A DNA stretch of 11,987 bases from the IMG/VR virus record IMGVR_UViG_2778261502_000005, positions 1-11,987 of that record; one strand, given 5' to 3'. Source of the stretch: a virus. Taxonomy: Duplodnaviria; Heunggongvirae; Uroviricota; Caudoviricetes. Shown piece after piece: positions 1 through 11,987 of the stretch. Within the stretch, counting starts at the first letter, position 1; each line of letters opens with the position of its first letter. Below the pieces are notes generated by a model. It saw only the letters and a program-made list of their open reading frames with translations. It searched no databases and was not told the DNA's origin. The translations under genes and the position numbers were made by a program.

Positions 1-516
1 ATGAAATTTAAAAAATGTCTTCTGCCTGTAGCAATGTTAGCGTCATTCACTCTGGCAGGATGCCAGTCAAATGCTGACGATCATGCCGCCGATGTTTATC
101 AAACCGATCAACTGAATACCAAACAAGAAACTAAAACCGTTAATATTATTTCCATTCTTCCCGCAAAAGTTGCCGTAGACAACTCCCAAAATAAACGGAA
201 CGCACAAGCCTTCGGCGCGCTTATTGGCGCAGTCGCTGGCGGTGTTATCGGCCACAACGTCGGTTCTGGCAGCAATTCCGGAACGACGGCAGGGGCAGTT
301 GGCGGCGGAGCTGTAGGCGCGGCAGCGGGTTCTATGGTGAATGATAAAACCTTAGTGGAAGGTGTTTCTTTAACGTATAAGGAAGGCACCAAAGTGTATA
401 CCTCCACCCAGGTGGGTAAAGAGTGCCAGTTTACGACAGGTTTAGCCGTTGTTATTACCACGACGTATAACGAAACGCGTATTCAGCCAAATACCAAATG
501 TCCTGAAAAGAGCTAA
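1..516 (+). CDS. Outer-membrane lipoprotein with a glycine-zipper region (SlyB/PCP-like), 171 aa
   Basis: ATG at window position 1. N-terminal signal peptide with lipobox L-A-G-C (MLASFTLAGCQS). Central Gly/Ala-rich run (GALIGAVAGGVIGHNVGSGSNSGTTAGAVGGGAVGAAAG) typical of glycine-zipper lipoproteins. Family assignment is from memory of the motif pattern, not alignment. Confidence 0.7.
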   Translation: MKFKKCLLPVAMLASFTLAGCQSNADDHAADVYQTDQLNTKQETKTVNIISILPAKVAVDNSQNKRNAQAFGALIGAVAGGVIGHNVGSGSNSGTTAGAVGGGAVGAAAGSMVNDKTLVEGVSLTYKEGTKVYTSTQVGKECQFTTGLAVVITTTYNETRIQPNTKCPEKS

Positions 517-531
517 TAATCAGGAGGAGTC

Positions 532-1071
532 ATGAAGAAAGTTTTTCTTTGCGCCATCTTGGCCTCCTTAAGCTATCCGGCTATCGCCTCATCATTGCAG
601 GATCAACTCTCGGCTGTCGCAGAAGCGGAACAGCAAGGTAAAAATGAAGAGCAAAAGCAGCATGATGAATGGGTCGCGGAGCGCAACAGGGAAATCCAGC
701 AAGAGAAGCAACGTCGCGCAAATGCCCAGGCCGCCGCTAACAAAAGAGCGGCAACGGCAGCAGCAAATAAGAAAGCTCGTCAGGATAAACTGGACGCCGA
801 AGCCTCTGCGGACAAAAAACGCGATCAAAGTTATGAAGATGAGCTACGCAGCTTAGAGATTCAGAAACAAAAACTGGCGCTGGCAAAAGAAGAAGCCCGC
901 GTTAAGCGAGAAAACGAATTTATCGATCAGGAACTGAAGCACAAAGCTGCGCAAACCGATGTGGTGCAATCTGAAGCTGACGCCAACAGAAATATGACTG
1001 AAGGCGGTCGCGATCTGATGAAAAGCGTGGGCAAAGCAGAAGAGAACAAATCGGACAGCTGGTTTAATTAA
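532..1071 (+). CDS. Secreted, highly charged coiled-coil-type protein of unknown function, 179 aa
   Basis: Strong SD AGGAGG 6-7 nt upstream of the ATG. Cleavable signal peptide ending AIA|SS. Lys/Glu/Gln/Ala-rich low-complexity body. Lies 15 bp after the lipoprotein, so probably co-transcribed. Confidence 0.7.
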   Translation: MKKVFLCAILASLSYPAIASSLQDQLSAVAEAEQQGKNEEQKQHDEWVAERNREIQQEKQRRANAQAAANKRAATAAANKKARQDKLDAEASADKKRDQSYEDELRSLEIQKQKLALAKEEARVKRENEFIDQELKHKAAQTDVVQSEADANRNMTEGGRDLMKSVGKAEENKSDSWFN

Positions 1072-1141: not shown

Positions 1142-1290
1142 TCATTCATAGTGCAGGGATTAAAATCATTCCCACTCAATTATTTACGACAACCATAACC
1201 AATTGAGTGATAACATTTTTCCAAAACTTCATTTTTCTCATACCGTTTTATATACCGTCACCGGAAATCAGTACCATGAAAAATGCCATG

Positions 1291-1773
1291 CTATCTGGTC
1301 AGGGTGTCGTACTGTTTTTCACAGACTCTTCCGGCTTCGGCTGCCCGGTCAGCATACTCTGCCAGTTGTCTGTTTCTCTCGAGAGATTTGCTGAGCACGT
1401 CGGCAAGCAAAACTCCGGTGTCTGCGGCTGACGTCCCAGCGCCGACAATGGCGTTATACTGCCTGAGTTGCTCACGGATGGCAACGAGCTGTTGCTGCAA
1501 CCGGCCAGCGCGAGCGGCAGCATCAAGAGCATCATTGCGCGCCTGGTCGATCCTCTGTTGCGCTTTACGTTCATTGATCGCTTTCTCCTGTTCGTAGTGC
1601 TGACGAACTTTCTCATCTTCGGCTTTGCGCTCTTCCTTCGCCTGTGCATACCCGGCGTCGTACTGTCGGCTACCATGCACATTCCAGGCAACAACTCCTG
1701 ATAGAGTCAAAACAGCAAGCATCGCCACGATAACCAACTGTTTCCAGTATGCTTTTACGAATGCCAAGATCAT
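1291..1773 (-). CDS. Rz-like inner-membrane spanin (i-spanin), 160 aa
   Basis: N-terminal transmembrane anchor (LVIVAMLAVLTLSGVVAW) followed by a long charged coiled-coil region. Start overlaps the endolysin stop as ATGA (1770-1773). Last gene of the lysis cassette. Confidence 0.7.
   Translation of the reverse strand: MILAFVKAYWKQLVIVAMLAVLTLSGVVAWNVHGSRQYDAGYAQAKEERKAEDEKVRQHYEQEKAINERKAQQRIDQARNDALDAAARAGRLQQQLVAIREQLRQYNAIVGAGTSAADTGVLLADVLSKSLERNRQLAEYADRAAEAGRVCEKQYDTLTR
1299..1535 (-). CDS. Candidate Rz1-like outer-membrane lipoprotein spanin (o-spanin) embedded in the +1 frame of Rz, 78 aa
   Basis: Internal ATG-ATG at 1535/1532 in the alternate frame of Rz. Short signal peptide with lipobox LALAGC, then a Ser/Pro-containing mature part. 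Weak SD (AGG) upstream. An embedded o-spanin is the standard Rz/Rz1 arrangement. Confidence 0.4.
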   Translation of the reverse strand: MMLLMLPLALAGCSNSSLPSVSNSGSITPLSALGRQPQTPEFCLPTCSANLSRETDNWQSMLTGQPKPEESVKNSTTP

Positions 1774-2399
1774 ATCGCCAGCACCTTACTGGCAGTGATG
1801 TATCGCTCACGCCTGTCGTCGATGCCGTTCCGGCCACCATTGATAATCAGAGTTACACGTGCAATATCGCCGGTATACTTCATGCAGCCTTTGCTGGAGA
1901 AAAACCACGCCGCGCTACGAGCCGCATATTCGTCCTGAGCCAGCAGTTCAGGACTCTCCAGCAGGTCAACCTTCAGACCGTTTCCACAGTCACGATAGTT
2001 ATTCAAACCGGTAATCTGGATAAGTCCGCGCCCACGGTAATTCCAGCCATCGCCGGGAGCATTGTTCCCCATGCGTTTGCTGTACACCAGATTTGCGATC
2101 GCGCGCTGGCGCTCAAGTGACAATGGTGGTTCGCCTGCGCGTCGCCCCAATACGTTGGCCTGTCCCTGAGTGAGACGCCCAGCCCGAACGAAGTTAACCA
2201 GTCCGCTGACGCTGTAGTTGAAATTCTCCTGCAACCGAGTGAAGCCCACAGACTCATGCCCGACCTGAGCAATAAACATTGCCTGATCTTCGGTTTTGCT
2301 GATACCAAACTCTTTCATCGCAGAAATTATATGCGAGAACCAGCGGTCGGCCAGCGACTCGCTGATACCAGCAGCTCGCTGAAATTGTTTAATCTCCAT
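1770..2399 (-). CDS. Endolysin, glycoside hydrolase family 19 (chitinase-like lysozyme) type, 209 aa
   Basis: Contains NYRGRGLIQITGLNNY, which matches the GH19 catalytic-region signature as I recall it, and a downstream AAWFF motif. No signal peptide. Sits between the holin-like genes and Rz with overlapping start and stop codons. Confidence 0.8.
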   Translation of the reverse strand: MEIKQFQRAAGISESLADRWFSHIISAMKEFGISKTEDQAMFIAQVGHESVGFTRLQENFNYSVSGLVNFVRAGRLTQGQANVLGRRAGEPPLSLERQRAIANLVYSKRMGNNAPGDGWNYRGRGLIQITGLNNYRDCGNGLKVDLLESPELLAQDEYAARSAAWFFSSKGCMKYTGDIARVTLIINGGRNGIDDRRERYITASKVLAI

Positions 2400-2697
2400 G
2401 TTTAGACCTCGCTAATTTGAAAATCTGAACGACGTTACCGCGTGTTTTAATAACCGCAGCAAGCATGACTACGTTGATAATGACCTCAGATAAATCCACT
2501 GCCATTGGCATGCTGAACCAGATTGCATAGGCGACACGAACCGGAATACTAGCCGCAGCAACAATCAGGAAATAAGCAAGCCAGCCACCCCATCGTCGGT
2601 GTTGAGATCCATTGCGCCGGAAAGTAACAACACGAATAGCTATGCCAGTACAAATAACTGCATTGGTGATAAGCAAAAAAATCTCATGCGTTACCAT
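2389..2697 (-). CDS. Holin-like small membrane protein (second of two), 102 aa
   Basis: Three predicted hydrophobic helices and a charged C-terminal tail (KTRGNVVQIFKLARSKHGD). SD GGGAG about 8 nt upstream of the ATG. Overlaps the upstream holin by 14 nt and the endolysin by 11 nt. Confidence 0.55.
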   Translation of the reverse strand: MVTHEIFLLITNAVICTGIAIRVVTFRRNGSQHRRWGGWLAYFLIVAAASIPVRVAYAIWFSMPMAVDLSEVIINVVMLAAVIKTRGNVVQIFKLARSKHGD

Positions 2698-3088
2698 CGT
2701 CTTTTCTCCCAGGAATCAACTCGCGTGGATTATCAGAACGATGATAGAGCCATATACCAATACGAACGGCGACAATTGCCGACACGAACGCACCTGTAGA
2801 AAATGCAATCCCTTTCTCGAATGAGTCCTGCGTGATGGTAGGGATCAGGCTGGCTACACCGATAAGGATGGATGCTGTAGGTTTGTAAAAGAGAAGGCCG
2901 CAGAGGAAGCTGAGCATCGACAGAAGAACACGACGACGGATTGGGTATTCTACTGCAGAGGTAACAAAAATTACCGCACCAGCCAAAGATCCCAAAGCGA
3001 CCTCTGGAGGAACTCCTGCTATCACCGACACTAAAGAACCAACGCTAAGCCACTGATTTAAAGATTCATTGGTTAACTGTATTGACAT
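2684..3088 (-). CDS. Holin-like membrane protein (first gene of the lysis cassette), about 134 aa
   Basis: Three to four hydrophobic segments. Start placed at the ATG at 3088, which has a GGTGG SD-like sequence 5 nt upstream. In-frame alternative starts exist at ATG 3100 and GTG 3118 (M-V-V-F-M spacing), so a dual-start holin/antiholin pair is possible but not demonstrated. Confidence 0.55.
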   Translation of the reverse strand: MSIQLTNESLNQWLSVGSLVSVIAGVPPEVALGSLAGAVIFVTSAVEYPIRRRVLLSMLSFLCGLLFYKPTASILIGVASLIPTITQDSFEKGIAFSTGAFVSAIVAVRIGIWLYHRSDNPRELIPGRKDDGNA

Positions 3089-3384
3089 AAAAACCACCAT
3101 TTTTGAGCATAATGACACTCTTAGCTAGTGAGTTCATTATACACAGCGAACCTTATATGGATTAGTGGTGGTTTATTTTAACGCTTAAAAAGCATACGCT
3201 GCTAATAGCACAACGCCTTGCAATCAGATGCAAACCTTTGTCCACTACTAATCTCAATGAAATAGATCAGCAAAGCATTTGACTCTCCCCGTTGGATGAT
3301 GTGTGAAGTGCTGACTAGAATGCTGCAAATATGATATGATGTTTGGCATCCATTGACTTTAATTTGTTATATAGATAAATACAT

Positions 3385-4386
3385 ATGAAAGAAATAAAAT
3401 CACTAACAGGTGTTAGAGGAATAGCTGCAATTTACGTAGTTCTTTATCACTTTACAAACGCAAAAATACCTTTTCTATGGAACGGATATCTAGCAGTAGA
3501 TCTTTTTTTCGTATTAAGCGGATTTATAATGTGTATGGTATACTCTAAAAATTTCACACAAGAAATATCTGTTAGTGAATTTGGAAAATTTATTTGGCAT
3601 AGATTTTCAAGAATATATCCATTATATTTATTTGTTTTATTATTAACAATAGTTATTCAAGTAAATCAATCATCGCCACCATCAACTCAAAATCTCATAA
3701 TAAATTTTATGATGTGGCAAAATTTATTTAATAATGGAATGGTTGGTGCATCATGGTCTGTTAGCGTTGAATTAATTGCGTATTTAATATTTCCGCCTCT
3801 AATATTCTTATTAACCGATAAGAAATGGTTATGTTTCATAATAATTTACACATCAATGTCAATGTTGTTTTATATTACAACAATTGACAACCCTGGTAGT
3901 AGCGGGCCACTTGATATATATAGCGGAATCCCTTCAATAATGAGAGGTGTTTGTGGTTTCACTATAGGTTGTTGTTGCTATGTTTTATTTGATAAATACA
4001 AACACACATTTAATGTTATTGCATATACTCAAGATATTTTGGCGGCTTTAGTAATAGCGTGTTTACTAACAAAAGGAATGGATGTTGTTTTTGTTATTTT
4101 GACCGGATTATATATATCATCGCTTTATTATAGCACTGGAATAACAGGATGGTTACTATCAACAAAACCTATTCATTATTTGGGGGAGTTGTCTTTTTCA
4201 ATTTACCTTACGCACCTGATGATACAAAGGCATTTTATATTTGAAGTGAATGCAATAACTGAATGGTTAAATGTTAGTTATATAAATGATGTGTTTGTTA
4301 TGGTTATATCTACACTGATGTTTTCTATATTAACATTTCATTTAGTAGAAAAGCCAAGCAGAAATATTCTAAGAAAACTAAAATAA
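3385..4386 (+). CDS. Acyltransferase-3 family integral-membrane O-acyltransferase (Oac-like O-antigen acetylase candidate), 333 aa
   Basis: N-terminal RGIAAIYVVLYHF and DLFFVLSGF motifs characteristic of acyltransferase-3 (R-x10-H and V-x2-FF-x-S-G). About ten hydrophobic helices. Very AT-rich (about 31% GC in the first 100 nt). No SD. Convergent with the tailspike gene. Confidence 0.8.
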   Translation: MKEIKSLTGVRGIAAIYVVLYHFTNAKIPFLWNGYLAVDLFFVLSGFIMCMVYSKNFTQEISVSEFGKFIWHRFSRIYPLYLFVLLLTIVIQVNQSSPPSTQNLIINFMMWQNLFNNGMVGASWSVSVELIAYLIFPPLIFLLTDKKWLCFIIIYTSMSMLFYITTIDNPGSSGPLDIYSGIPSIMRGVCGFTIGCCCYVLFDKYKHTFNVIAYTQDILAALVIACLLTKGMDVVFVILTGLYISSLYYSTGITGWLLSTKPIHYLGELSFSIYLTHLMIQRHFIFEVNAITEWLNVSYINDVFVMVISTLMFSILTFHLVEKPSRNILRKLK

Positions 4387-4393
4387 ACAAAAA

Positions 4394-4428
4394 ATGCCGA
4401 CGGATACTTAAACAATCTATCGGCATTA
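4394..4428. terminator. Bidirectional hairpin terminator between the convergent acyltransferase and tailspike genes
   Basis: AATGCCGA (4394-4401) pairs with TCGGCATT (4421-4428), with an inner GATA/TATC extension. A-run on the left and a T-rich tract on the right. Confidence 0.5.
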
Positions 4429-4434
4429 AATTTA

Positions 4435-6864
4435 TTAAGGATTACTTACCAACCCCTTCCATCCTCCACTTCCTGCGCTTGTGCATTGATAGAAGTATCC
4501 TGTGTTTTTGTCAACATATAATCCTCCTGGCTTACCATTAATAACTCCGTAAGGAGTTCCTGAACCGCTTATCAATGAAATACCATGTATAAAAGAAACA
4601 TTCTGACTATATGTTCCTGTCCCTGGAGCTCTGGCCATATCATTAATAGCACAAAGCCATGATCCAGCTGTTGATATGTTTGATATATTATCATCATCAT
4701 TTGGGACAATGGCTATCATTGGTATTGTTGCGTTTTTACCATAACCTCTAATATTACTTATTCCTCTTTGAACTCTTGAGTCTGTCAAATCTCTAATCAA
4801 TGGAACACTTACGCTATCTTCACAGATAAAGTTATTTATCGTGTAGTCATCACAGCTTGAATCAGTTTCTATATGAACCAATCCCTCGGCATCAGTATCG
4901 GAAGCTCCTGAGTATCCACCATCCCAAAAAATGCCATCTATGTTTATATATCTTGCTCCGCCGCTAATATATATATTACCAGCACCTCCGATAACCCTTA
5001 ATTCATTTATATAAATACCGTAGAACCCTAAAATTTCAACAACCCTTGCATGGTTTGATGTGTATTTTGAGTTGTTTGCGTTTTCAACCGTACAACTTGC
5101 TATAACGGAATACCTGGCATTTTGATGCCGCCCCGATGGTATTGATGCTGTATTAATGTGCTCAATTTGGAATCCATGAACACAATTTTTTGCATAACAT
5201 CTATAAAATTTAACACATCTTGCGGGCATTGTTGTTGAGTGGCCCTTCTGCTGAAATCCAGTCATTACCCCATCCGCATAACAATCCATCACGGTAACAT
5301 TATAACTTCCTTCATCAATTTCAATACCATGCTGATTCCCTGTCCATACCATATCAGGGTCATCGTTCCATACTCGGCAGCGGTTAATTACAATATCACT
5401 GCTATTATGCGTTGTAATGAGATCGTCAAGTTGACTGTTTTGAACAAAAGTGTCTTCAACAACAATGTCATAGCTACCACCAACTGCATTATTATTAATA
5501 TTCCCATCATCGAAATAATACCCAGCACAAATATCTATACCATGCTGCAAACCACGCTTACAGTAAACGTTTTTGATGGAACTGTGGCTGACAGTAGAAA
5601 ATAAAATAGTAGTCCCCTGTGTGGCATCCATCCATGTTTCTGACGGATTTCTTGCTCGATTGTTAGCATCTACACATAAGTCTTCTATGTGGATAGAAGT
5701 ATCGTAGTTTGTCCTGAATACCCTGTATTCATAAAGCTCGTTCTGAATACAGTTTTCAATTATCGGCATTGTTGGTAGTGCTAGAATAACGGTCTTAAAT
5801 TTCCCCACCCCACGCAATCTAACGTAAGATGGTACTTTCAGTGCAGAGTTAATCCCGTAAGTACCTTCAGAAAGAATAAGCTCTTTCACCGTTGCCATTT
5901 TTGCCGCTTGCAGTGCTTTGTTCAATTTATCATGACAATCCGTTACTCCATCAGGAACAATTCCGTAATAATCAGCATACACTTCATTGCAGATTCTTTT
6001 CCAACGCTTTCCACCAGGCGTCACAATTATCATTCCATCATCATCAATTGTTGTTAAATCAGTGCTATCATAATAAAAATACCCACCTCCAATACCAGAG
6101 CCTAAAGTATGCTCTAATACATATATTCTTTGCTGTAAATTTGTTGGTTCTATATTGCGTAAATTAGAAATGGAAGCACAATTGCCAATAAGTTTTAAGC
6201 CATCACTTGCTGCTAGCTGAATCATTACATCGGATGCAGATCCAGACTGTGGAAGGACCATAATAGGATTACCATTGTCATCCATCGCTACCACTTTGTT
6301 TTTACGATTCTCAGCATCAGGCAAACTTGGTATTGGCTCAGGCGTTCTAAGAGTACGACCTAGATTTGTATTAGCAAGTTTATCGACATAATTTTTAGTT
6401 GCCGCATCCTGTGGGCGCACAGGGTCTCGCAGATTTCTGATGTAGTTGTTAATAGCGTCATAATAATTCGACACAAAAGATGGCTTACGAAGAGCAAGTG
6501 AAAACCAACTTCTTACCTGCTGGATCAGCATCGTTAGCTTATCAAACGCGTCTTCGTGCACCTCAGCAAAAAACTTACCCTGGTTTCTAAGATCTGTTTC
6601 CTGAGTAACCGATAGTTCTCGCAATATGGAAATCTGATAACCATTAGCCAGTGCCTTCGACAGAATTACATTGCCACCGTTATACCCTCCCGCACCAGTG
6701 ACTGTGTAATCAGTATCAAGATCCAGCACAGTGATATTCTCGTCAAGGTCAATCACCTGCACTACTAAATCAGATTTATTGAAAACCCTAAAGGTATAAG
6801 GGAATGATGTCGTAACGCCGTTACCGGTGTATTCGTTGTGGTTAACTTCGGTTGAGACCGTCAT
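4435..6864 (-). CDS. Tailspike/tail fibre with T7-tail-fibre-like N-terminal anchor domain and C-terminal beta-helix (pectate-lyase-like) domain; probable polysaccharide depolymerase, 809 aa
   Basis: N-terminus (YTGNGVTTSFPYTF...DLVVQV...DYTVT...IRNLRDPVRPQDAATKNYVDKL) follows the conserved pattern of the T7 gp17 N-terminal domain. The remainder is rich in Gly/Asn/Ser/Thr/Ile as expected for a right-handed beta-helix. SD GGAG 7 nt upstream of the ATG. GC drops after roughly the first 170 codons. Confidence 0.8.
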   Translation of the reverse strand: MTVSTEVNHNEYTGNGVTTSFPYTFRVFNKSDLVVQVIDLDENITVLDLDTDYTVTGAGGYNGGNVILSKALANGYQISILRELSVTQETDLRNQGKFFAEVHEDAFDKLTMLIQQVRSWFSLALRKPSFVSNYYDAINNYIRNLRDPVRPQDAATKNYVDKLANTNLGRTLRTPEPIPSLPDAENRKNKVVAMDDNGNPIMVLPQSGSASDVMIQLAASDGLKLIGNCASISNLRNIEPTNLQQRIYVLEHTLGSGIGGGYFYYDSTDLTTIDDDGMIIVTPGGKRWKRICNEVYADYYGIVPDGVTDCHDKLNKALQAAKMATVKELILSEGTYGINSALKVPSYVRLRGVGKFKTVILALPTMPIIENCIQNELYEYRVFRTNYDTSIHIEDLCVDANNRARNPSETWMDATQGTTILFSTVSHSSIKNVYCKRGLQHGIDICAGYYFDDGNINNNAVGGSYDIVVEDTFVQNSQLDDLITTHNSSDIVINRCRVWNDDPDMVWTGNQHGIEIDEGSYNVTVMDCYADGVMTGFQQKGHSTTMPARCVKFYRCYAKNCVHGFQIEHINTASIPSGRHQNARYSVIASCTVENANNSKYTSNHARVVEILGFYGIYINELRVIGGAGNIYISGGARYINIDGIFWDGGYSGASDTDAEGLVHIETDSSCDDYTINNFICEDSVSVPLIRDLTDSRVQRGISNIRGYGKNATIPMIAIVPNDDDNISNISTAGSWLCAINDMARAPGTGTYSQNVSFIHGISLISGSGTPYGVINGKPGGLYVDKNTGYFYQCTSAGSGGWKGLVSNP

Positions 6865-6968: not shown

Positions 6969-6983
6969 TTACCTTTCAGGTGA
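6969..6983. promoter_or_regulatory. Operator-like palindrome TTACC-N5-GGTGA upstream of the tailspike gene
   Basis: TTACCtttcaGGTGA, a 9/10 match to the TTACC-N5-GGTAA motif found around the repressor gene. Lies about 105 bp upstream of the tailspike ATG, next to a TTGCAA hexamer on the minus strand. Confidence 0.4.
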
Positions 6984-7012: not shown

Positions 7013-7708
7013 TTATTTGATACTGTATAAATATACAGTTATTGCATGGAGAAGATAAGATGCAGCAGTATCACTATCCACTGGAAGACGGATTTTCCGA
7101 AGAAAGTCATCTGATGGCTGCCATTGTTCATGCATGACAAATTTGCCTAATTGCCCTGGCCCACCAGGAGGAACAAAGTTATTCATCACGGCGTTGTTTG
7201 CGCCGGGGTCATGATGCACAGAATCCCCGTTTTTTGTCCTGCTCTCCCTCTCTTGGTTAAATGACTGGTTATATGACTGGTTCTGGATCCCGTTTTTGGG
7301 ATCATTCAACATCCCGTTTTTGGGATCATTCAACATCCCGTTTTTGGGTATATTCCCGTTTTCGGGTATATTCCCGTTTTCGGGTATATTCCCGTTTTCG
7401 GGTTCATTGCCCCCCTCCCGGTTGCCTTTAATGTTCCCGTTTTTGGTTATATTAAGAGAGAAAACCCGCACTCTTTTTGTCGCTCCCTTTCTATCTCCGG
7501 TATCTGAAATAAGCCCCATTTTCATGAGCGATATAAGCCCGGCCTGCACGGTTTTTTTATTCAGGCAAGTGTCTTTAACGAGGCGTTCTATGCTGGGGTA
7601 GCAGAGGTTATATTCATCGGCTCTGTCAGCCATCGAGAGCAGTATGAGCTTTAATGATGAGCTACCTGGATCTGTCTCCCAGGCCCAATCTGTTGCATGT
7701 CTGCTCAT
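7013..7708 (-). CDS. Phage replication initiator, O-like, with N-terminal winged-HTH domain and internal repeat region, 231 aa
   Basis: N-terminal region (LKLILLSMADRADEYNLCYPSIERLVKDTCLNKKTVQAGLISLMKMGLISD) has the pattern of phage and plasmid replication-initiator HTH domains. The central part is a tandem peptide repeat (ENGNIP x3, NDPKNGML x2) encoded by iteron-like DNA repeats. Starts 13 nt after the upstream gene. Confidence 0.75.
   Translation of the reverse strand: MSRHATDWAWETDPGSSSLKLILLSMADRADEYNLCYPSIERLVKDTCLNKKTVQAGLISLMKMGLISDTGDRKGATKRVRVFSLNITKNGNIKGNREGGNEPENGNIPENGNIPENGNIPKNGMLNDPKNGMLNDPKNGIQNQSYNQSFNQERESRTKNGDSVHHDPGANNAVMNNFVPPGGPGQLGKFVMHEQWQPSDDFLRKIRLPVDSDTAASYLLHAITVYLYSIK
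7021..7040. promoter_or_regulatory. Candidate LexA (SOS) box
   Basis: TACTGTATAAATATACAGTT matches the consensus TACTGTATATATATACAGTA at 18 of 20 positions, with perfect CTGT-N8-ACAG arms and an all-A/T spacer. It lies within the last 9 codons of the O-like gene, about 157 bp upstream of the tailspike ATG. Confidence 0.55.
7289..7453. repeat. Iteron-like direct repeats (candidate replication origin) inside the O-like gene
   Basis: Seven tandem units sharing the core CCCGTTTT(T/C)GG(G/T): 24-bp units at 7289 and 7313; 18-bp units at 7337, 7355, 7373, 7391 and 7436. The core CCCGAAAACGGG is itself palindromic. A further 12-bp tandem (ATGACTGGTT-AT/CT) lies at 7261-7284. Confidence 0.65.
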
Positions 7709-7723
7709 GATTAATCTCCGCTA

Positions 7724-7924
7724 TCAGCTTGAGTGTTGTGGGGAGGAATTAATCATGATCTGCTTAATCTCTGCCCTGATGCGACGGTTTGATTCCATGG
7801 TGCACTCAACACAGTGTCCGTTGTAAACCCAGCGTTCACTGTCATGTCCGTGCTTACATGGTTTTCCGGTGTAGTAGCGTTTAAGTCCGCGCTTTGCGGC
7901 ATCAATACGTGTAATGATTTCCAT
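7724..7924 (-). CDS. Small Cys/His-rich (putative zinc-binding) protein in the cII-equivalent position, 66 aa
   Basis: Start placed at the internal ATG at 7924 (MEIITRI...), with an AGGG SD-like sequence upstream; the longer ORF beginning at 7987 adds a hydrophobic leader. Motif C-x-H-x-H-x13-H-C-x2-C. Function not recognisable from sequence. Confidence 0.45.
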   Translation of the reverse strand: MEIITRIDAAKRGLKRYYTGKPCKHGHDSERWVYNGHCVECTMESNRRIRAEIKQIMINSSPQHSS

Positions 7925-8004
7925 GGTAAGCCCTGTTATTAGTATTGGGATTACGGTTATTTTGTGCTGACACAAAAAAAAGATCAACCATATTTGGTTT
8001 TTTA

Positions 8005-8019
8005 TTACCTTTGAGGTAC
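8005..8019. promoter_or_regulatory. Operator-like palindrome TTACC-N5-GGTAC between the cro-side terminator and the Cys/His gene
   Basis: TTACCtttgaGGTAC, a 9/10 match to the shared motif. Confidence 0.4.
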
Positions 8020-8029
8020 GGATAGATAT

Positions 8030-8053
8030 GAAAAGACCGCCGGATGGCGGTCT
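8030..8053 (-). terminator. tR1-like rho-independent terminator downstream of the Cro-like gene
   Basis: GC-rich 8-bp stem AGACCGCC (8034-8041), loop GGAT, GGCGGTCT (8046-8053). On the minus strand it is followed by TTTTCAT. Sits between the Cro-like stop (8075) and the next gene. Confidence 0.5.
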
Positions 8054-8074
8054 ACAGAGGGTTGTGGCTGGATA

Positions 8075-8305
8075 TCATGAGTAGAAGAAGTATGCCAGTT
8101 CTGCTTTTGAGCGCAGCCATTGTCTTGTTTTACAGGCTTTAAAAAGCCCATTCATCAATACTTTACCTGGCATTTTGCGCTTACCTGTTAAGTGAGTCTG
8201 GATATAGTGACTCGTCGTTCCGGCTTCCTGTGCGAAGGCTTCACGCTCATCCGGAGTAAGTGCAAGCCAGTGCTTTTTGAAATCGAAATGTCCGTTATCG
8301 CTCAT
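8075..8305 (-). CDS. Cro-like small HTH regulator (DicC/YdaS-like), 76 aa
   Basis: Small basic protein divergently transcribed from the repressor gene. Putative HTH around EAFAQEAGTTSHYIQTHLTG. The position matches lambda cro. Family call is tentative. Confidence 0.6.
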   Translation of the reverse strand: MSDNGHFDFKKHWLALTPDEREAFAQEAGTTSHYIQTHLTGKRKMPGKVLMNGLFKACKTRQWLRSKAELAYFFYS

Positions 8306-8341
8306 AGCTATTGCCTGATATTTATTTCAGATAATAAATAT

Positions 8342-8404
8342 TCACCTATAAGGTAACAAAAATCAAGGATAGTTACCCATGAGGTGCATTTACCTGTTGG
8401 GTAA
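8342..8404. promoter_or_regulatory. OR-like operator cluster of three TTACC-N5-GGTAA-type palindromes in the divergent Cro-like/repressor promoter region
   Basis: Sites at 8342-8356 (TCACCtataaGGTAA), 8373-8387 (TTACCcatgaGGTGC) and 8390-8404 (TTACCtgttgGGTAA, perfect). An AT-rich 9-6-9 palindrome ATATTTATT-N6-AATAAATAT lies at 8318-8341. Confidence 0.6.
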
Positions 8405-8459
8405 TATTGCTTTAAATTGAATCATCTACTGATTCATATATGAGGCGATTTTCCAGAAA

Positions 8460-9044
8460 ATGAAAAGTATCCAGGACGTCCGCAGGCAAAATCTCAACGA
8501 CTTGATCGACCGTGAATTCAATGGTGTTCAGACGCGGATGGCAGAAAAACTTGGAACTCAGGCAAATCTGGTAAACCGCTGGGCTCTTGGCAAGAAGGTT
8601 ATCGGCGACCAGGTTGCGCGAAAAATTGAAGCTGCCGCCAATAAACCCCGTAATTGGCTTGATATCGATCGCTCGCTTTCTCAGGAAGGTTTTCAGCCTG
8701 TCGGCCCGAGTGATATAGGTCAGCTGGCTGCTCACAACCTGGAACGCTGGATGAGCGAAAGCCGCGACCTTTCAACACAGGGAAAACTTCACCGCGCATC
8801 CGGCGTCGCCCAGGTGACAATCAGCCGCCTGTTAAACAATGAGGTCAGCGTTTCCATTTCCACCCTGGAGAATGTTGCATCCGCATTCGGGCGTCACGGC
8901 TATGAATTACTGATTCACCCGCACGACCCTGCGACTATCAACTATGACCGCTCGCGCTACGCATTGTTACCCGAAACAGAGAAGGCAAAGATCGAAAGTT
9001 ACATTGAATTTGTCATCAGCCAGAACGAAAAAAACAAACAATAA
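8460..9044 (+). CDS. Phage repressor with two tandem XRE-type HTH domains and no S24 peptidase domain, 194 aa
   Basis: First HTH around QTRMAEKLGTQANLVNRWALGKK, second around LHRASGVAQVTISRLLNNEV. No Ala-Gly/Ser-Lys autocleavage module is recognisable. The nearest SD-like GAGG is about 14 nt upstream of the ATG. Flanked by operator palindromes on both sides. Confidence 0.8.
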   Translation: MKSIQDVRRQNLNDLIDREFNGVQTRMAEKLGTQANLVNRWALGKKVIGDQVARKIEAAANKPRNWLDIDRSLSQEGFQPVGPSDIGQLAAHNLERWMSESRDLSTQGKLHRASGVAQVTISRLLNNEVSVSISTLENVASAFGRHGYELLIHPHDPATINYDRSRYALLPETEKAKIESYIEFVISQNEKNKQ

Positions 9045-9065
9045 AATCATATTTTTCAGTAAGTA

Positions 9066-9090
9066 AGCCGCCTTCTGGCGGCTTTTTTAT
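9066..9090 (+). terminator. Rho-independent terminator after the repressor gene
   Basis: AGCCGCC (9066-9072), loop TTCT, GGCGGCT (9077-9083), followed by TTTTTTATT. Confidence 0.75.
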
Positions 9091-9100
9091 TGCCAGATAG

Positions 9101-9123
9101 ATTACCTTACGGGTAATTTTTTT
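9101..9123 (+). terminator. Second hairpin with T-tract; also a perfect copy of the operator palindrome (OL-like distal site)
   Basis: ATTACC-ttacg-GGTAAT followed by TTTTTTT. The core TTACCttacgGGTAA lies at 9102-9116. Confidence 0.5.
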
Positions 9124-9135
9124 AACTCATATCTA

Positions 9136-9178
9136 TTGACACCAAACCAAATAAGCATAATTATTACCTCAACGGTAA
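9136..9178 (+). promoter_or_regulatory. pL-like early promoter with overlapping operator, driving the small ORF, methyltransferase and phosphatase
   Basis: Consensus -35 TTGACA (9136-9141), 17-bp spacer, -10 candidate AATTAT (9159-9164). Perfect operator TTACCtcaacGGTAA (9164-9178) overlaps the -10 and the predicted transcription start. SD GAGGT at 9185-9189. Confidence 0.55.
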
Positions 9179-9197
9179 CAGACCGAGGTAACAAGTT

Positions 9198-9347
9198 ATG
9201 CAGTGGAAAATCATCAACGGTTGGTACTGCGTTACTGCATGCGGATTCATGAGCTGGAAGTTCCGCACCTTACAGGAAGGTATTAAGTGGGCTTTCGTCA
9301 GCAAAGAAGCTCGCGATGTGGCCAACGATAACGAGATATGGGAGTAG
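9198..9347 (+). CDS. Small ORF of unknown function (first gene of the early operon), 49 aa
   Basis: ATG with SD GAGGT 8 nt upstream. Trp- and Cys-containing (MQWKIINGWYCVTACGF...). Absent from the ORF track because of its length. Coding status unverified. Confidence 0.4.
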   Translation: MQWKIINGWYCVTACGFMSWKFRTLQEGIKWAFVSKEARDVANDNEIWE

Positions 9348-9421
9348 GTTAGCAAATGAGTGAATTGTCAATCATCGAAATCACACCAGACATAGCGGCA
9401 TAGGATGTTGTGGGGTGGTTT

Positions 9422-10072
9422 ATGACTAAGAAATACACACTAATCTATGCAGATCCACCCTGGGTATACCGGGACAAAGCCGCAGATGGTAATCGCGGTG
9501 CCGGTTTTAAATATCCGGTTATGAGTGTGCTGGATATCTGCCGCCTTCCTGTGTGGGATTTGGCCGATGAAAACTGTCTGTTGGCCATGTGGTGGGTGCC
9601 AACACAACCACTCGAAGCACTAAAAGTTGTTGAAGCCTGGGGATTCCGTCTGATGACGATGAAGGGCTTCACGTGGATAAAATGTGGTAGTCGACAACCA
9701 GATAAACTGGTTATGGGTATGGGACACATGACTCGCGCCAATAGTGAAGATTGCCTGTTTGCAGTAAAGGGAAAACTACCTCCGCGCATTAATGCAGGGA
9801 TCGTTCAGTCATTTACCGCACCGCGGCTTGAGCATTCAAGAAAACCAGATGTCGTTCGTGAAAAACTTGTGCAATTGTTAGGCGATGTTTCTCGCATTGA
9901 ACTGTTCGCCCGCCAGTCGTCTCATGGCTTCGATGTTTGGGGTAATCAGTGCGAAGACCCGGCAGTGCAACTACACCCTGGATACGCGTTGGATATTGGC
10001 GGATTAACAAATGCATTCAGCAATGCTCCGGTGTCACCAATAGACAACCAGGGGCGGGAGCGTGCAGCATGA
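9422..10072 (+). CDS. MT-A70 family N6-adenine DNA methyltransferase, 216 aa
   Basis: Catalytic DPPW motif in [10 protein letters not shown]. Start placed at the ATG at 9422, with a GGGGTGG SD-like sequence upstream; the ORF track uses GTG at 9410. Stop overlaps the phosphatase start as ATGA. Confidence 0.8.
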
Positions 10073-10728
10073 ACCTATATCAACGCATCAATGGCGCTGA
10101 CTGGTGCAATATCTTCGTCGTCGGCGATCTGCATGGGTGCTACACGCTGCTGATGAACGAACTCGACAAAGTTTCATTCGACCCGGCGCGCGATTTACTT
10201 ATTTCCGTTGGTGACCTTGTTGACCGCGGCGCTGAAAACGTCGAATGCCTGGATTTGATTACTATGCCGTGGTTCCGAGCTGTTCGTGGCAACCATGAGC
10301 AGATGATGCTGGATGCACTGGTCAACGGCGGAAGTTTCGGACATTGGATGTCAAACGGCGGTGGATGGTGGCACCAACTTGATTCTGAGCAGGATGTGCA
10401 ACTCAAATACCTTCTGCCAAAGATTACCAACCTCCCGATGATTATCGAACTGGTTACCGGCAATAAGAAGGTCGTCATCTGTCACGCAGACTACCCGCAC
10501 AACGAATACGCATTCGATAAGCCAGTACCAGAAGAAATGGTGATATGGAATCGTGAACGGGTTAGCGACGCGCAGGACGGTATTGTCTCGGAGATAACCG
10601 GTGCCGATTTGTTCATCTTCGGTCATACGCCAGCACATCACCCACTGGTGTATGCAAACCAGATGTACATCGACACCGGCGCAGTGTTCTGCGGAAATCT
10701 GACGCATACCAAAGTCCAGGAAGGATAG
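10069..10728 (+). CDS. Lambda-type serine/threonine protein phosphatase (metallophosphoesterase, PrpA/PrpB-like), 219 aa
   Basis: Signature motifs GDLHG, GDLVDRG and GNHE. The ATG at 10069 overlaps the methyltransferase stop. The longer track ORF from 9949 is an out-of-context N-terminal extension. Confidence 0.85.
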
Positions 10729-10730
10729 AA

Positions 10731-11987
10731 TTATTTATTACTGTCTTCCATCCACTTCTCAAACTTCGACGGGGAGAACGGAATCAGATCCGTATGCTCC
10801 CCGTTAATCCAGGAATCAATCATATCGGCCCACTGCTGCAACATGTAGGCGCGCTGTCTGGCGTATTCCGCTTTGTTATATACGGCGCGCACACCTTTCT
10901 GCTCATGTGCCAGAGCCTTTTCAATCCAGTCTGAAGGATAACCAGCCTCATGCAACAACGTACTTGCTGTACGGCGCATATCGTGTACGGTGAAGTCCTG
11001 AATATGCTCACCATCTTCATTTATTATTTTCACCGTTCTGTCGATCAGAGAGTTCAGCGCGGCATTAGATAATGGCTTCCGGAAATTGTAACGACCAGGA
11101 ACCAGATATTCACTTCCACCAGCGCACATCTGCAACCCAACCAATATATCCTGTGCCTGTTTAGGCAGGTAAATAACGTGCGCCCGGCTTCCCTTCATGC
11201 GGTCTGAAGGAATTGTCCATGTCCATTTTTTAAAATCTATTTCATCCCACGTTGCATTGGTGAATTCGCCTTTACGAACCATAGTGATAAGCACCAGCTT
11301 TAAAGCCATTTTCATAGTGCCCATAGCACCAATGGCATCCAGCGTGCGGAAGAACAGGCCAATTTCTTCTGGTGTCAGTGTTCGCTCTCGTGGTTTAAAT
11401 ATGGCGATAGACGAAGGTTTAATGTCAGCCGCAGGATTAAACAAACCATGACCACGGTCATTGGCATGACGGTATACGCTGCTGATGATCTCCCTGGCCT
11501 GCACTGCTGTTGCCCGGCCACCGCGTTCGACAATCCGGTCACACAAATCACGAACCATCGATGTGGTAATTTCAGCCATCATTTTATTGCCAAGAACCGG
11601 AAGTATGTCACGGTCGATCACCGCCTGTTTCATTGCGCGGGTACTGTCAGCCAGGATGACGTGTTTCATATAACTGTCGGTATGTACCGCAAACGTCTCG
11701 GCACCACGAATCTTTTTGATACCGTCACGTTTAGCCGCAGCCGGTGACTGGCCTGCTTTAAGCAGCTTCTTTGCAGCAATCAGTTCTTCTCGCGCTTCTG
11801 CCAGGCTGATACCGTCACGCCCATACTGCCCGATTACCAGCGTTTCGCGGCGACCGTTGATACGGTAGTCGTAGCGAAACGAGACCGTGCCTGACGTAAG
11901 CACAGCTACATACAGCCCGTCACGATCGGAGACCTTGTACAGTTTGTCCTGCGGCTTGAGGTTTTTTAATTTTGTATCGGTAAGCAC
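10731..11987 (-). CDS. int: Tyrosine recombinase, phage integrase with N-terminal arm-binding domain, 418 aa
   Basis: N-terminus MLTDTKLKNLKP...DGLYVAV is typical of arm-type-binding integrase N-termini. C-terminal catalytic H-x-x-R (HDMRRT) and tyrosine in RAVYNKAEY. First codon is GTG at the window edge, so the true start may lie just outside. The 3' end is 2 bp from the phosphatase stop. Confidence 0.85.
   Translation of the reverse strand: MLTDTKLKNLKPQDKLYKVSDRDGLYVAVLTSGTVSFRYDYRINGRRETLVIGQYGRDGISLAEAREELIAAKKLLKAGQSPAAAKRDGIKKIRGAETFAVHTDSYMKHVILADSTRAMKQAVIDRDILPVLGNKMMAEITTSMVRDLCDRIVERGGRATAVQAREIISSVYRHANDRGHGLFNPAADIKPSSIAIFKPRERTLTPEEIGLFFRTLDAIGAMGTMKMALKLVLITMVRKGEFTNATWDEIDFKKWTWTIPSDRMKGSRAHVIYLPKQAQDILVGLQMCAGGSEYLVPGRYNFRKPLSNAALNSLIDRTVKIINEDGEHIQDFTVHDMRRTASTLLHEAGYPSDWIEKALAHEQKGVRAVYNKAEYARQRAYMLQQWADMIDSWINGEHTDLIPFSPSKFEKWMEDSNK

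Follow-up and report, generated by a model that had tools for sequence, protein, structure and literature searches.

A probable deletion product of the Uetakevirus leftward early operon, with intact MT-A70 methyltransferase and lambda-type phosphatase genes, in a defective Escherichia coli prophage

Known Uetakevirus systems and identity of the element

In PAS61 (OQ921333) and the ETEC4090 prophage (NZ_CP122620), both of the genus Uetakevirus, the leftward early operon is intact and contains, in this order, a 49-aa gene, a 344-aa gene, p38 and genes for an exonuclease, RecT, AlpA, PerC, an MT-A70 methyltransferase and a phosphatase, and the integrase gene converges on it. A Bro-type antirepressor promotes lytic growth in this genus, and in ZX5 overexpression of the repressor, which is the same protein as that of the locus studied here, shut off the lytic genes (PMC9782041). 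The sequence ATTGAGTGGGAATGATT is the attP of phiV10, epsilon15 and ZX5 (PMC9782041).

The only studied close homologue of the methyltransferase considered here is gp5 of the Stx-phage PA8 (M.EcoPA8orf6770P). The activity of the PA8 enzyme on DNA in vitro was weak and non-specific, and together with its partner PNB-2 it has been reported as a 16S rRNA methyltransferase; lysogenic expression of the PA8 homologous gene pair has also been reported (PMC10810198). A related enzyme, M.EcoGV, methylated GATC in vivo when overproduced, as cited in PMC10810198.

The window (the whole stretch of DNA analysed, 11,987 nt) consists of E. coli yfgH/yfgI and about 11 kb left over from a prophage of the phiV10/epsilon15 type (Uetakevirus) in the guaA att site. 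On either side of the gaps, the nucleotide identity to PAS61, phiV10 and ETEC4090 was 97–99%. The host flank is yfgH/yfgI, and guaA lies beyond the integrase gene in the relatives; the comparison of the element covers it from attL to the first codon of the integrase, where the window stops. The early-left synteny of Uetakeviruses was found (repressor, terminator, promoter, p39 ... methyltransferase, X, convergent integrase). The full gene set of the operon (p38, exonuclease/RecT, AlpA, PerC) and an entire phage genome were not, with deletions at 9389–9393 and 7093–7101. The element is a defective remnant of a member of Uetakevirus. All of the genes left in 7724–11987 are intact and 97–100% identical to genes of functional phages. 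An Rfam scan of the whole window gave zero matches. The features are as follows.

1164..1180, minus strand: attL core of the prophage, adjoining host yfgI; exact match to ATTGAGTGGGAATGATT
7093..7101, no strand: large deletion junction, from BLAST breakpoints against phiV10, PAS61 and ETEC4090
8075..8305, minus strand: Cro-like early regulator; 76/76 identical to phiV10 p41; phrog_35, transcriptional repressor
8342–8356, 8373–8387 and 8390–8404, no strand: three operator-type sites between the cro and repressor genes; TTACC-N5-GGTAA with 1, 2 and 0 mismatches, respectively
8460..9044, plus strand: repressor of the prophage, with two HTH domains and lacking a peptidase domain; Pfam matches confined to HTH_3 and related families
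9065..9084, plus strand: intrinsic terminator ending the repressor transcript; 8-bp stem with 6 GC pairs, T-run
9102..9116, no strand: promoter-distal operator, exact TTACCTTACGGGTAA, 20 bp upstream of the -35 element
9136..9164, plus strand: leftward early promoter (pL-equivalent); TTGACA, 17 nt, AATTAT; 10/12 match
9164..9178, no strand: promoter-proximal operator, exact TTACCTCAACGGTAA, abutting the -10 element and covering the expected transcription start
9198..9347, plus strand: 49-aa first gene of the operon, phiV10 p39/epsilon15 gp37 family; phrog_898, E = 5e-38
9356..9403, plus strand: fusion remnant ORF of 15 codons, MSELSIIEITPDIAA; ETEC4090 aligns on both sides of the junction
9389..9393, no strand: internal operon deletion junction, ~3.67 kb lost; microhomology GAC(A/T)AT
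9422..10072, plus strand: MT-A70 family methyltransferase, class beta, DPPW, 216 aa; PF05063, E = 7.6e-22
10069..10728, plus strand: lambda-type (NinI) Ser/Thr protein phosphatase, 219 aa; 1G5B, E = 8e-99, residues 1–217
10731..11987, minus strand: convergent P4-type tyrosine integrase with Arm-DNA-bind_3, Phage_int_M and Phage_integrase domains

Promoter and operators of the leftward operon

The repressor (194 aa) was identical to that of ETEC4090 (194/194) and nearly so to phiV10 p40 (193/194), and the Cro-like gene (8075..8305) is divergent from it. The terminator downstream of the repressor gene is annotated at the equivalent position in phiV10. The leftward promoter carries its -35 element (TTGACA) at 9136–9141 and its -10 element (AATTAT) at 9159–9164; the -35 element and an xATTAT -10 element were kept in phages as divergent as PAT1 and BUCT554. 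Exact TTACC-N5-GGTAA sites occur three times in the window, all within the two regulatory regions, and the sites between cro and the repressor gene (8342..8404) correspond to the repeat families D2, D3 and I5–I15.

Among 82 distinct upstream regions of related loci, 81 had kept the operator/-35/operator geometry, with the distal operator at -34 and the proximal one at +28 relative to TTGAC; the half-sites of the distal operator were conserved in 81/82 loci and its centre was variable. With three exact sites and this conservation, the operator layout exceeds chance. Comparison of the 82 loci now defines TTACC-N5-GGTAA at -34/+28 from the -35 element as the layout of the genus.

By sequence, this is a sigma-70 promoter with operators matching the repressor/cro type, i.e., a promoter of the pL type. 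The original prediction of a pL-equivalent, repressor-controlled leftward early operon was borne out by the gene order, which matches that of phiV10, PAS61 and many prophages. The consensus -35 promoter that it included is also present (10/12), upstream of the gene region 9198–10728 for which it had been described. An operator overlapping the -35 element was not found; the sites lie 20 bp upstream of this element and against the -10 element. A simple consensus scan of 9198–10728 detected no internal promoters or terminators.

According to the sequence and to what is known from the related phage, the resident two-HTH repressor would bind both TTACC-N5-GGTAA sites and the operon would be silent. 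If derepressed, the operon would yield a single transcript, with a junk peptide of 15 aa encoded between the 49-aa protein and the two enzymes (methyltransferase, then phosphatase), and this transcript would run antisense into int. Derepression would be possible only in trans, from a related phage, because the Bro antirepressor, the replication gene P and every virion gene have been lost. The idea of an induction-timed operon is not applicable here as such, since the repressor has HTH domains only and the Bro-type antirepressor is deleted. As derepression would come only in trans, the methyltransferase and the phosphatase most likely persist as cargo that is silent and still intact in a prophage undergoing decay. 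A weak promoter missed by the simple consensus scan could drive lysogenic expression, as reported for the PA8 pair (PMC10810198).

Deletion junctions and origin of the compact gene order

The junction at 9389–9393 was seen in comparison with the locus L007: the window up to 9393 matches L007 up to 6074, and from 9389 onwards it matches L007 from 9740 onwards. The sequence across the junction is CACACCAGACATAGCGGCATAGG. Through the ~3.67-kb deletion, the second gene now runs from its start straight into the last PerC codons, and the 344-aa gene, p38, the PD-(D/E)XK exonuclease, RecT, an AlpA-type regulator and the PerC-family gene are lost. The remnant ORF (9356..9403) includes the first ~12 codons of the 344-aa gene, followed by the 3′ end of the PerC-family gene, out of frame. 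This junction was absent from the complete E. coli genomes searched.

Based on the above results, we suggest, with a probability of about 80%, that the region represents the promoter-proximal and promoter-distal ends of a standard Uetakevirus leftward early operon, which became adjacent when ~3.67 kb was lost through a microhomology-mediated deletion. Two operon ends joined by a deletion in a defective prophage point to ordinary prophage decay rather than to a purpose-built module.

In line with the original description, the same region could be read as a compact, purpose-built three-gene early module, in which a Kil/N-like protein, an anti-restriction orphan DNA adenine methyltransferase and a host-signalling phosphatase are switched on at induction. 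The genes are indeed intact and seem to make up a single transcription unit downstream of a promoter under operator control; the methyltransferase matched a Type II methyltransferase model of PADLOC (E = 6e-77), and the GATC methylation by overproduced M.EcoGV mentioned above would fit such a role. However, the compactness results from the deletion in a 10-gene operon, with a gene remnant visible at a junction that no complete E. coli genome searched contains, and productive induction of the prophage is impossible because the virion genes, P and the antirepressor are gone. In addition, the nearest studied homologue of the methyltransferase reportedly acts weakly on DNA and favours 16S rRNA when combined with its partner protein (PMC10810198), and the 49-aa protein is unlike the Kil or N families. 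The junction analysis largely refutes the purpose-built module, to which we give hardly any credence: the gene order became compact through deletion, an artefact that is no evidence of design.

At the second junction (7093–7101), the region upstream of the tailspike gene meets an O/DnaT-like replication gene that is truncated. The join bears the microhomology TTxCCGAA, and past about residue 205 of 271 the O protein is divergent. All virion and terminase genes, the replication gene P, part of O and the Bro antirepressor gene were removed, the Bro-N gene falling inside the deleted block according to the phiV10 annotation and the breakpoints.

Further remnants at the same att site were found in AF56, AST205 and FG31-1, differently deleted: the methyltransferase is truncated in AF56, and the full operon is kept in AST205 and FG31-1. 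A deletion ancestral to the guaA remnants was considered and rejected for the window and AST205, each of which retains sequence missing in the other. The recurrence of such remnants with different junctions, the intact repressor and operators and the intact genes in 7724–11987 might suggest domestication, i.e., that the deletions were retained for the benefit of the host, the repressor provides immunity to related phages, and the antirepressor of a superinfecting Uetakevirus triggers a host-modifying or defensive operon. The gene content, however, differs from remnant to remnant, which argues for neutral decay and not for selection of the configuration in the window, and among the defence systems of PADLOC nothing beyond a generic methyltransferase model was matched. 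The high identity to live phages points to a recent event rather than long-term maintenance, and we consider domestication unlikely.

A further reading, which we regard as highly improbable, is a trans-activated switch: on superinfection by a related Uetakevirus, or on induction of one, its Bro-type antirepressor would free the shortened operon, and the MT-A70 enzyme (acting on rRNA or DNA) and the phosphatase would be produced at once and alone. If this were true, host translation or signalling would be altered to the benefit of the host or the phage, and the Uetakevirus MT-A70 enzyme would work without a PNB-2-type partner.

Under the preferred reading of operon ends joined by deletion, the locus carries little weight as a discovery: the operon is already known, being annotated in phiV10, PAS61 and more than 100 E. 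coli genomes, and the copy in the window is decayed. The features described originally were all confirmed to be present, and their context alters their meaning.

Encoded proteins and relation to known systems

The 49-aa ORF is a real, conserved gene, identical over 49/49 residues to an annotated gene of the ETEC4090 prophage. A nucleotide-level RNA or DNA element within it was considered, as the first 38 nt were invariant in five sequences. It was rejected: in 55 distinct DNA versions, the N-terminal residues were invariant and the codons varied synonymously throughout, which indicates selection at the protein level. No match to Pfam or NCBIfam was obtained, the sole family being the unannotated phrog_898, and a profile search against 1.84 billion representatives gave 18 short unannotated clusters only. 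The AlphaFold model (pLDDT 55, pTM 0.25) was too poor to use. The comparison with Kil- or N-like proteins had been drawn from position only; similarity to Kil, N or any annotated family was absent.

The methyltransferase is present and intact, as had been proposed: PF05063 was matched over profile positions 1–172 of 172 (78.5 bits against a cut-off of 23.9), the DPPW catalytic motif IV lies at residues 11–14, and 212/216 residues are identical to PAS61. The mechanically called ORF has its start at a GTG (9410); the annotations of PAS61 and phiV10 use the ATG at 9422, which is preceded by GGGGTGG. The enzyme was 83% identical to PA8 gp5 (155/187, residues 1–187). Both are MT-A70/DPPW enzymes encoded in an integrase-proximal left-arm position, with DUF1382 following the PA8 gene, as in phiV10. 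This position is the normal one in Uetakeviruses and Stx lambdoid phages, so the methyltransferase is not a displaced nin-region gene. The two proteins differ in that the alignment ends at residue 187, the C-terminal ~29 residues showing no relationship. No homologue of the upstream partner gene PNB-2 occurs in the window; the upstream gene is PNB-2 in PA8 and a PerC-family gene in Uetakeviruses, which is deleted in the window. Of the PA8 holoenzyme, a close relative of the catalytic subunit was found, and the PNB-2 neighbour and the gp5-type tail were not. Homology of the PerC-family protein to PNB-2 was rejected, as there was no similarity. Kinship to the non-specific phage enzymes M.EcoGII and Hia5 was rejected as well: these have DPPY and belong to other subfamilies (PMC5778455, PMC3299994), and MT-A70 is the only family matched by the window protein.

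The suggested anti-restriction role is unsupported, since the activity reported for PA8 gp5 is 16S rRNA methylation together with a partner, which is absent here. It is conceivable that the window protein is a DNA N6-adenine enzyme (Dam-like or relaxed) protecting phage DNA from restriction, and not an RNA methyltransferase. Phage records label members of the group as DNA methyltransferases, the class-beta DPPW motif is common to DNA amino-methyltransferases (PMC7544214), and M.EcoGV, as cited above, acted on GATC upon overexpression. Moreover, with a different C-terminal tail and no PNB-2 neighbour, partner-based rRNA targeting may not apply to the Uetakevirus enzyme. Against this, the PA8 enzyme was only weakly and non-specifically active on DNA (PMC10810198), and the solved structures nearest by sequence are eukaryotic MT-A70 enzymes that require partner subunits. 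PADLOC returned only generic Type II methyltransferase models. We treat the DNA-methyltransferase reading as tentative, with the odds somewhat against it. As the one close homologue studied is reported to be a partner-dependent 16S rRNA methyltransferase, annotators and readers should not assume an anti-restriction DNA methylase role for prophage MT-A70 genes.

The phosphatase is an orthologue of lambda phosphatase (144/217, 66% identity), and Mn2+-dependent activity may be expected from this identity. The lambda type proposed originally agrees with the end-to-end alignment to NinI/ORF221 (PDB 1G5B), in which all metal-binding and catalytic motifs (GDLHG, GDLVDRG, GNHE, H139, GHT), and with them the metallophosphoesterase fold and the two distal His ligands, were found; the Pfam Metallophos match had E = 1.4e-15. 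The ATGA overlap with the methyltransferase gene lies at 10069–10072, and the stop codon TAG (10726–10728) is separated by 2 nt from the integrase stop (10731–10733, minus strand), both as described. The listed integrase ORF opens with a GTG at the final base of the window. Similarity to phiV10 is lost exactly at 10074 and picks up again at 10748, and the boundary of the exchange coincides exactly with the ATGA overlap. The slot is occupied by different cassettes in a mosaic fashion, DUF1382 (p32) in phiV10 and a NinI-type phosphatase in the window and PAS61. The gene shares 79% nucleotide identity with the phi80 and HK225 copies. Unlike lambda phosphatase, which belongs to the nin region of the right operon, that of the window lies at the end of the left operon beside int, and it was acquired as a cassette bounded exactly by the neighbouring genes.

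The arrangement resembles lambda cI-rex-tL/OL-pL-N in having a repressor gene, a terminator and an operator-controlled leftward promoter in one orientation, with the operator type of the promoter recurring at the divergent cro/repressor region. It differs from lambda in that the repressor, with its two HTH domains, lacks a RecA-cleavable domain, the promoter is flanked by two operators rather than three, the integrase gene is convergent and not co-transcribed, and no N/nut system was identified in the window.

Of 5,426 complete E. coli genomes, 143 have the methyltransferase–phosphatase–integrase arrangement. phiV10 (NC_007804) shares in p40–p31 the synteny of the window, as well as the att core and the repressor, at 97–99% nucleotide identity; its first gene encodes 50 aa instead of 49. 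The closest systems are PAS61 and the ETEC4090 prophage, which retain both the 3.67 kb separating the first gene from that of the methyltransferase and the ~25-kb virion/replication block, each missing from the window. The repressor, terminator, promoter, operators and first gene are as in the window, the ATGA overlap and the 2-nt gap are identical, and in PAS61 the phosphatase (218/219) and the full-length converging integrase (416/418) are, like the methyltransferase, nearly identical to those of the window.

Organization and decay of the prophage

The window layout was derived from an ORF listing and family scans, with BLAST searches of phages and of the complete genomes of E. coli.

Features of the window
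1-1071: host genes yfgH and yfgI
1164-1180: att core, 17 bp, exact
1291-6864: phage lysis genes, acyltransferase gene and tailspike gene
9065-9084: intrinsic terminator upstream of the promoter, ending the repressor transcript
9136-9164: promoter, TTGACA (9136-9141), 17-nt spacer, AATTAT (9159-9164)
9198-9347: 49-aa ORF
9422-10072: MT-A70 methyltransferase gene, from the ATG annotated in Escherichia phage PAS61 and phiV10, not the mechanical GTG at 9410
10069-10072: ATGA overlap of the methyltransferase and phosphatase genes

The att core is that of phiV10, epsilon15 and ZX5 (PMC9782041). The tailspike gene is followed by a truncated O/DnaT-like replication gene and a small gene, then by a cro-like gene and the repressor, and lastly by the three operon genes and a P4-type integrase, directly past which guaA lies in related genomes. 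Based on this layout, the element is assigned to the phiV10/epsilon15-like (Uetakevirus) prophages, with a length of only ~11 kb versus ~39 kb.

At a second junction (7093-7101), which shows TTxCCGAA microhomology and is separate from the one in the left operon, sequence from upstream of the tailspike gene is fused to an O gene that breaks off after roughly residue 205 of 271. About 25 kb was lost here, including P, every terminase and virion gene, and the gene for the Bro-N antirepressor, whose place in phiV10 is just past the sequence retained in the window. The lysis genes, acyltransferase, tailspike, immunity region and integrase were kept. E. coli AF56, AST205 and FG31-1 carry remnants with different deletions at guaA. 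Since the window and AST205 each keep sequence missing from the other, their deletions are independent events; deleted remnants at this site are typical prophage decay.

Within 3150-6185, the phage collection offered no close DNA relative for the acyltransferase gene (3385-4386) or for the receptor-binding C-terminal part of the 809-aa tailspike, and the tailspike match to phiV10 and PAS61 was limited to the N-terminal ~240 codons. This region probably forms a distinct module for O-antigen modification and recognition. The truncated O/DnaT-like gene contains tandem repeats (7254-7403) of 12 bp x2.4 (7254-7282), 24 bp x2.6 (7287-7348) and 18 bp x3.8 (7336-7403), the last with one unit more than in the ETEC4090 prophage. 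They encode NGNIPE/NGMLNDPK peptide repeats and resemble origin iterons such as those of lambda O. The ORF at 7724-7987 has 87 aa mechanically versus 66 aa for phiV10 gene p42; because the conserved stretch starts at residue 22, translation probably does not include the N-terminal extension.

Origin of the short left operon

Every feature described in the original prediction was found in the window, including the phosphatase stop, which ends at 10728, two bases from the integrase stop. The idea of a designed compact module was not borne out. Two stretches of the window, 7093-9344 and 9388-11987, align with PAS61 (OQ921333), which has a further 2.7 kb between them. The 43-bp join does not match PAS61 and corresponds to the start of an alternative second gene found in the ETEC4090, AR_0085 and phiv142-3 prophages. 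In the comparison with ETEC4090 (NZ_CP122620), the left match extends up to 9393 and the right match starts from 9389, at locus positions 6074 and 9740, indicating a ~3.67-kb deletion at GAC(A/T)AT microhomology.

Gene order of the intact ETEC4090 locus
1: 49-aa gene
2: 344-aa gene
3: p38
4: PD-(D/E)XK nuclease
5: RecT
6: AlpA-type regulator
7: PerC-family protein
8: MT-A70 methyltransferase
9: phosphatase
10: integrase, opposite strand, convergent

The deleted block has left a 15-codon fusion ORF (9356-9403), and the junction at 9389-9393 was found in none of the 5,426 complete E. coli genomes. These comparisons identify the compact operon as a deletion product. The arrangement itself is already annotated in characterised phages and many genomes; the strain-specific deletion is the sole new element.

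The phosphatase aligns end to end with the lambda Ser/Thr phosphatase (1G5B; E=8e-99, 144/217 identical) and has the motifs GDLHG, GDLVDRG, GNHE, His139 and GHT. It shares 218 of 219 residues with the enzyme of PAS61, an isolated phage; its nearest DNA relatives outside the genus are ninI of phi80 and HK225 (79% identity). Homology to phiV10 (NC_007804) ends at 10074 and restarts at 10748, so the phosphatase is a cassette exactly replacing the phiV10 DUF1382 gene. The methyltransferase-phosphatase-integrase arrangement was present at >=80% coverage in 143 of the 5,426 genomes, and most of the other matches listed carried the DUF1382 variant.

The 49-aa protein, seen solely in Enterobacteriaceae prophages, belongs to phrog_898, a family without assigned function; it resembles Kil or N in position only. 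Searching 1.84 billion representatives with a profile returned only 18 short clusters, and its structure prediction was unreliable. In 55 distinct DNA versions, two to four synonymous codons encode each of the invariant residues I6, G8, T13 and A14; the ORF is a real gene.

Predicted control of the operon

The palindrome TTACC-N5-GGTAA occurs without mismatch three times in the window (8390, 9102 and 9164), with near-matches at 8342 and 8373; all five lie inside the two regulatory regions. One of the two predicted left-arm operators is 20 bp upstream of the -35, and the other abuts the -10, covering the expected transcription start. The half-sites, -35 and -10 are conserved in five phages, among them the divergent PAT1 (Salmonella) and BUCT554 (Enterobacter); operator centres and flanks vary. 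Operators at -34 and +28 relative to TTGAC were kept in 81 of 82 distinct upstream regions from IMG/VR relatives. Comparison thus gives strong support to the promoter and operators, and the proposed repressor-controlled, pL-equivalent operon is supported. The region is a single apparent transcription unit, and no promoter-like or terminator-like site was found within 9198-10728, nor before the integrase.

Two further palindromes with one mismatch (8005-8019 and 6969-6983) lie outside the main regulatory regions, one of them beside a terminator-like hairpin on the downstream side of the cro-like gene; they may reflect chance or be additional repressor sites. In PAT1 (L011 2440-2500) and a subgroup of related loci (L093-L122), ~70 extra bases separate the promoter from the 49-aa gene, and a third operator (-28 relative to the start codon) overlaps the ribosome-binding region. 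An inverted repeat at 9161-9194 (TTATTACCTC / GAGGTAACAA, arms separated by 14 nt) covers the proximal operator together with the Shine-Dalgarno of the 49-aa gene; since its 5' arm probably precedes the transcription start, the repeat may not act as an RNA structure.

The repressor is identical to that of ETEC4090 (194/194) and contains HTH domains only; in ZX5, repressor overexpression shuts lytic genes (PMC9782041). We suggest that the resident repressor would occupy the two operators and silence the promoter. The Bro-type antirepressor of intact phages would promote the switch to lytic growth, after which the left operon would deliver recombination functions, AlpA, PerC, methyltransferase and phosphatase, its transcript continuing antisense into int. 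With the antirepressor lost along with all that lytic growth requires, the induction timing originally proposed finds no support, and the shortened operon could be switched on only in trans, by a related phage. That the remnant works as a switch, triggered by an antirepressor and expressing a phosphatase with an rRNA or DNA methyltransferase, is highly improbable (about one chance in twenty); both enzymes are best seen as intact, probably silent cargo.

The methyltransferase and its relative in Stx phage PA8

The methyltransferase has a full-domain PF05063 match with DPPW at residue 11. The DPPY enzymes M.EcoGII and Hia5, also considered, are not related (PMC5778455, PMC3299994). Among studied enzymes, the methyltransferase is closest to gp5 of PA8 (M.EcoPA8orf6770P; 155/187 identical). 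According to Gong et al. (PMC10810198), gp5 shows weak, non-specific activity when alone. With the upstream-encoded PNB-2 it reportedly forms a 1:1 complex, which prefers 16S rRNA in 30S subunits as substrate and raises spontaneous induction; the related M.EcoGV methylated GATC when overproduced (PMC10810198). The Uetakevirus enzyme differs from gp5 in its C-terminal tail. In intact Uetakeviruses the position of PNB-2 is taken by an unrelated PerC-family gene, deleted in the window, which overlaps the methyltransferase start by 8 nt (9530-9781 in the ETEC4090 locus; 8776-9042 in related locus L002). Given the rRNA preference of gp5 with PNB-2, the different tail and the lack of a PNB-2-like neighbour, the anti-restriction role attributed to the enzyme is an assumption, which the studied homologue does not support. 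Nor does PA8 favour a methylase displaced from the nin region: its gp5 gene has the same integrase-proximal position and is followed by DUF1382, as in the phiV10-type order.
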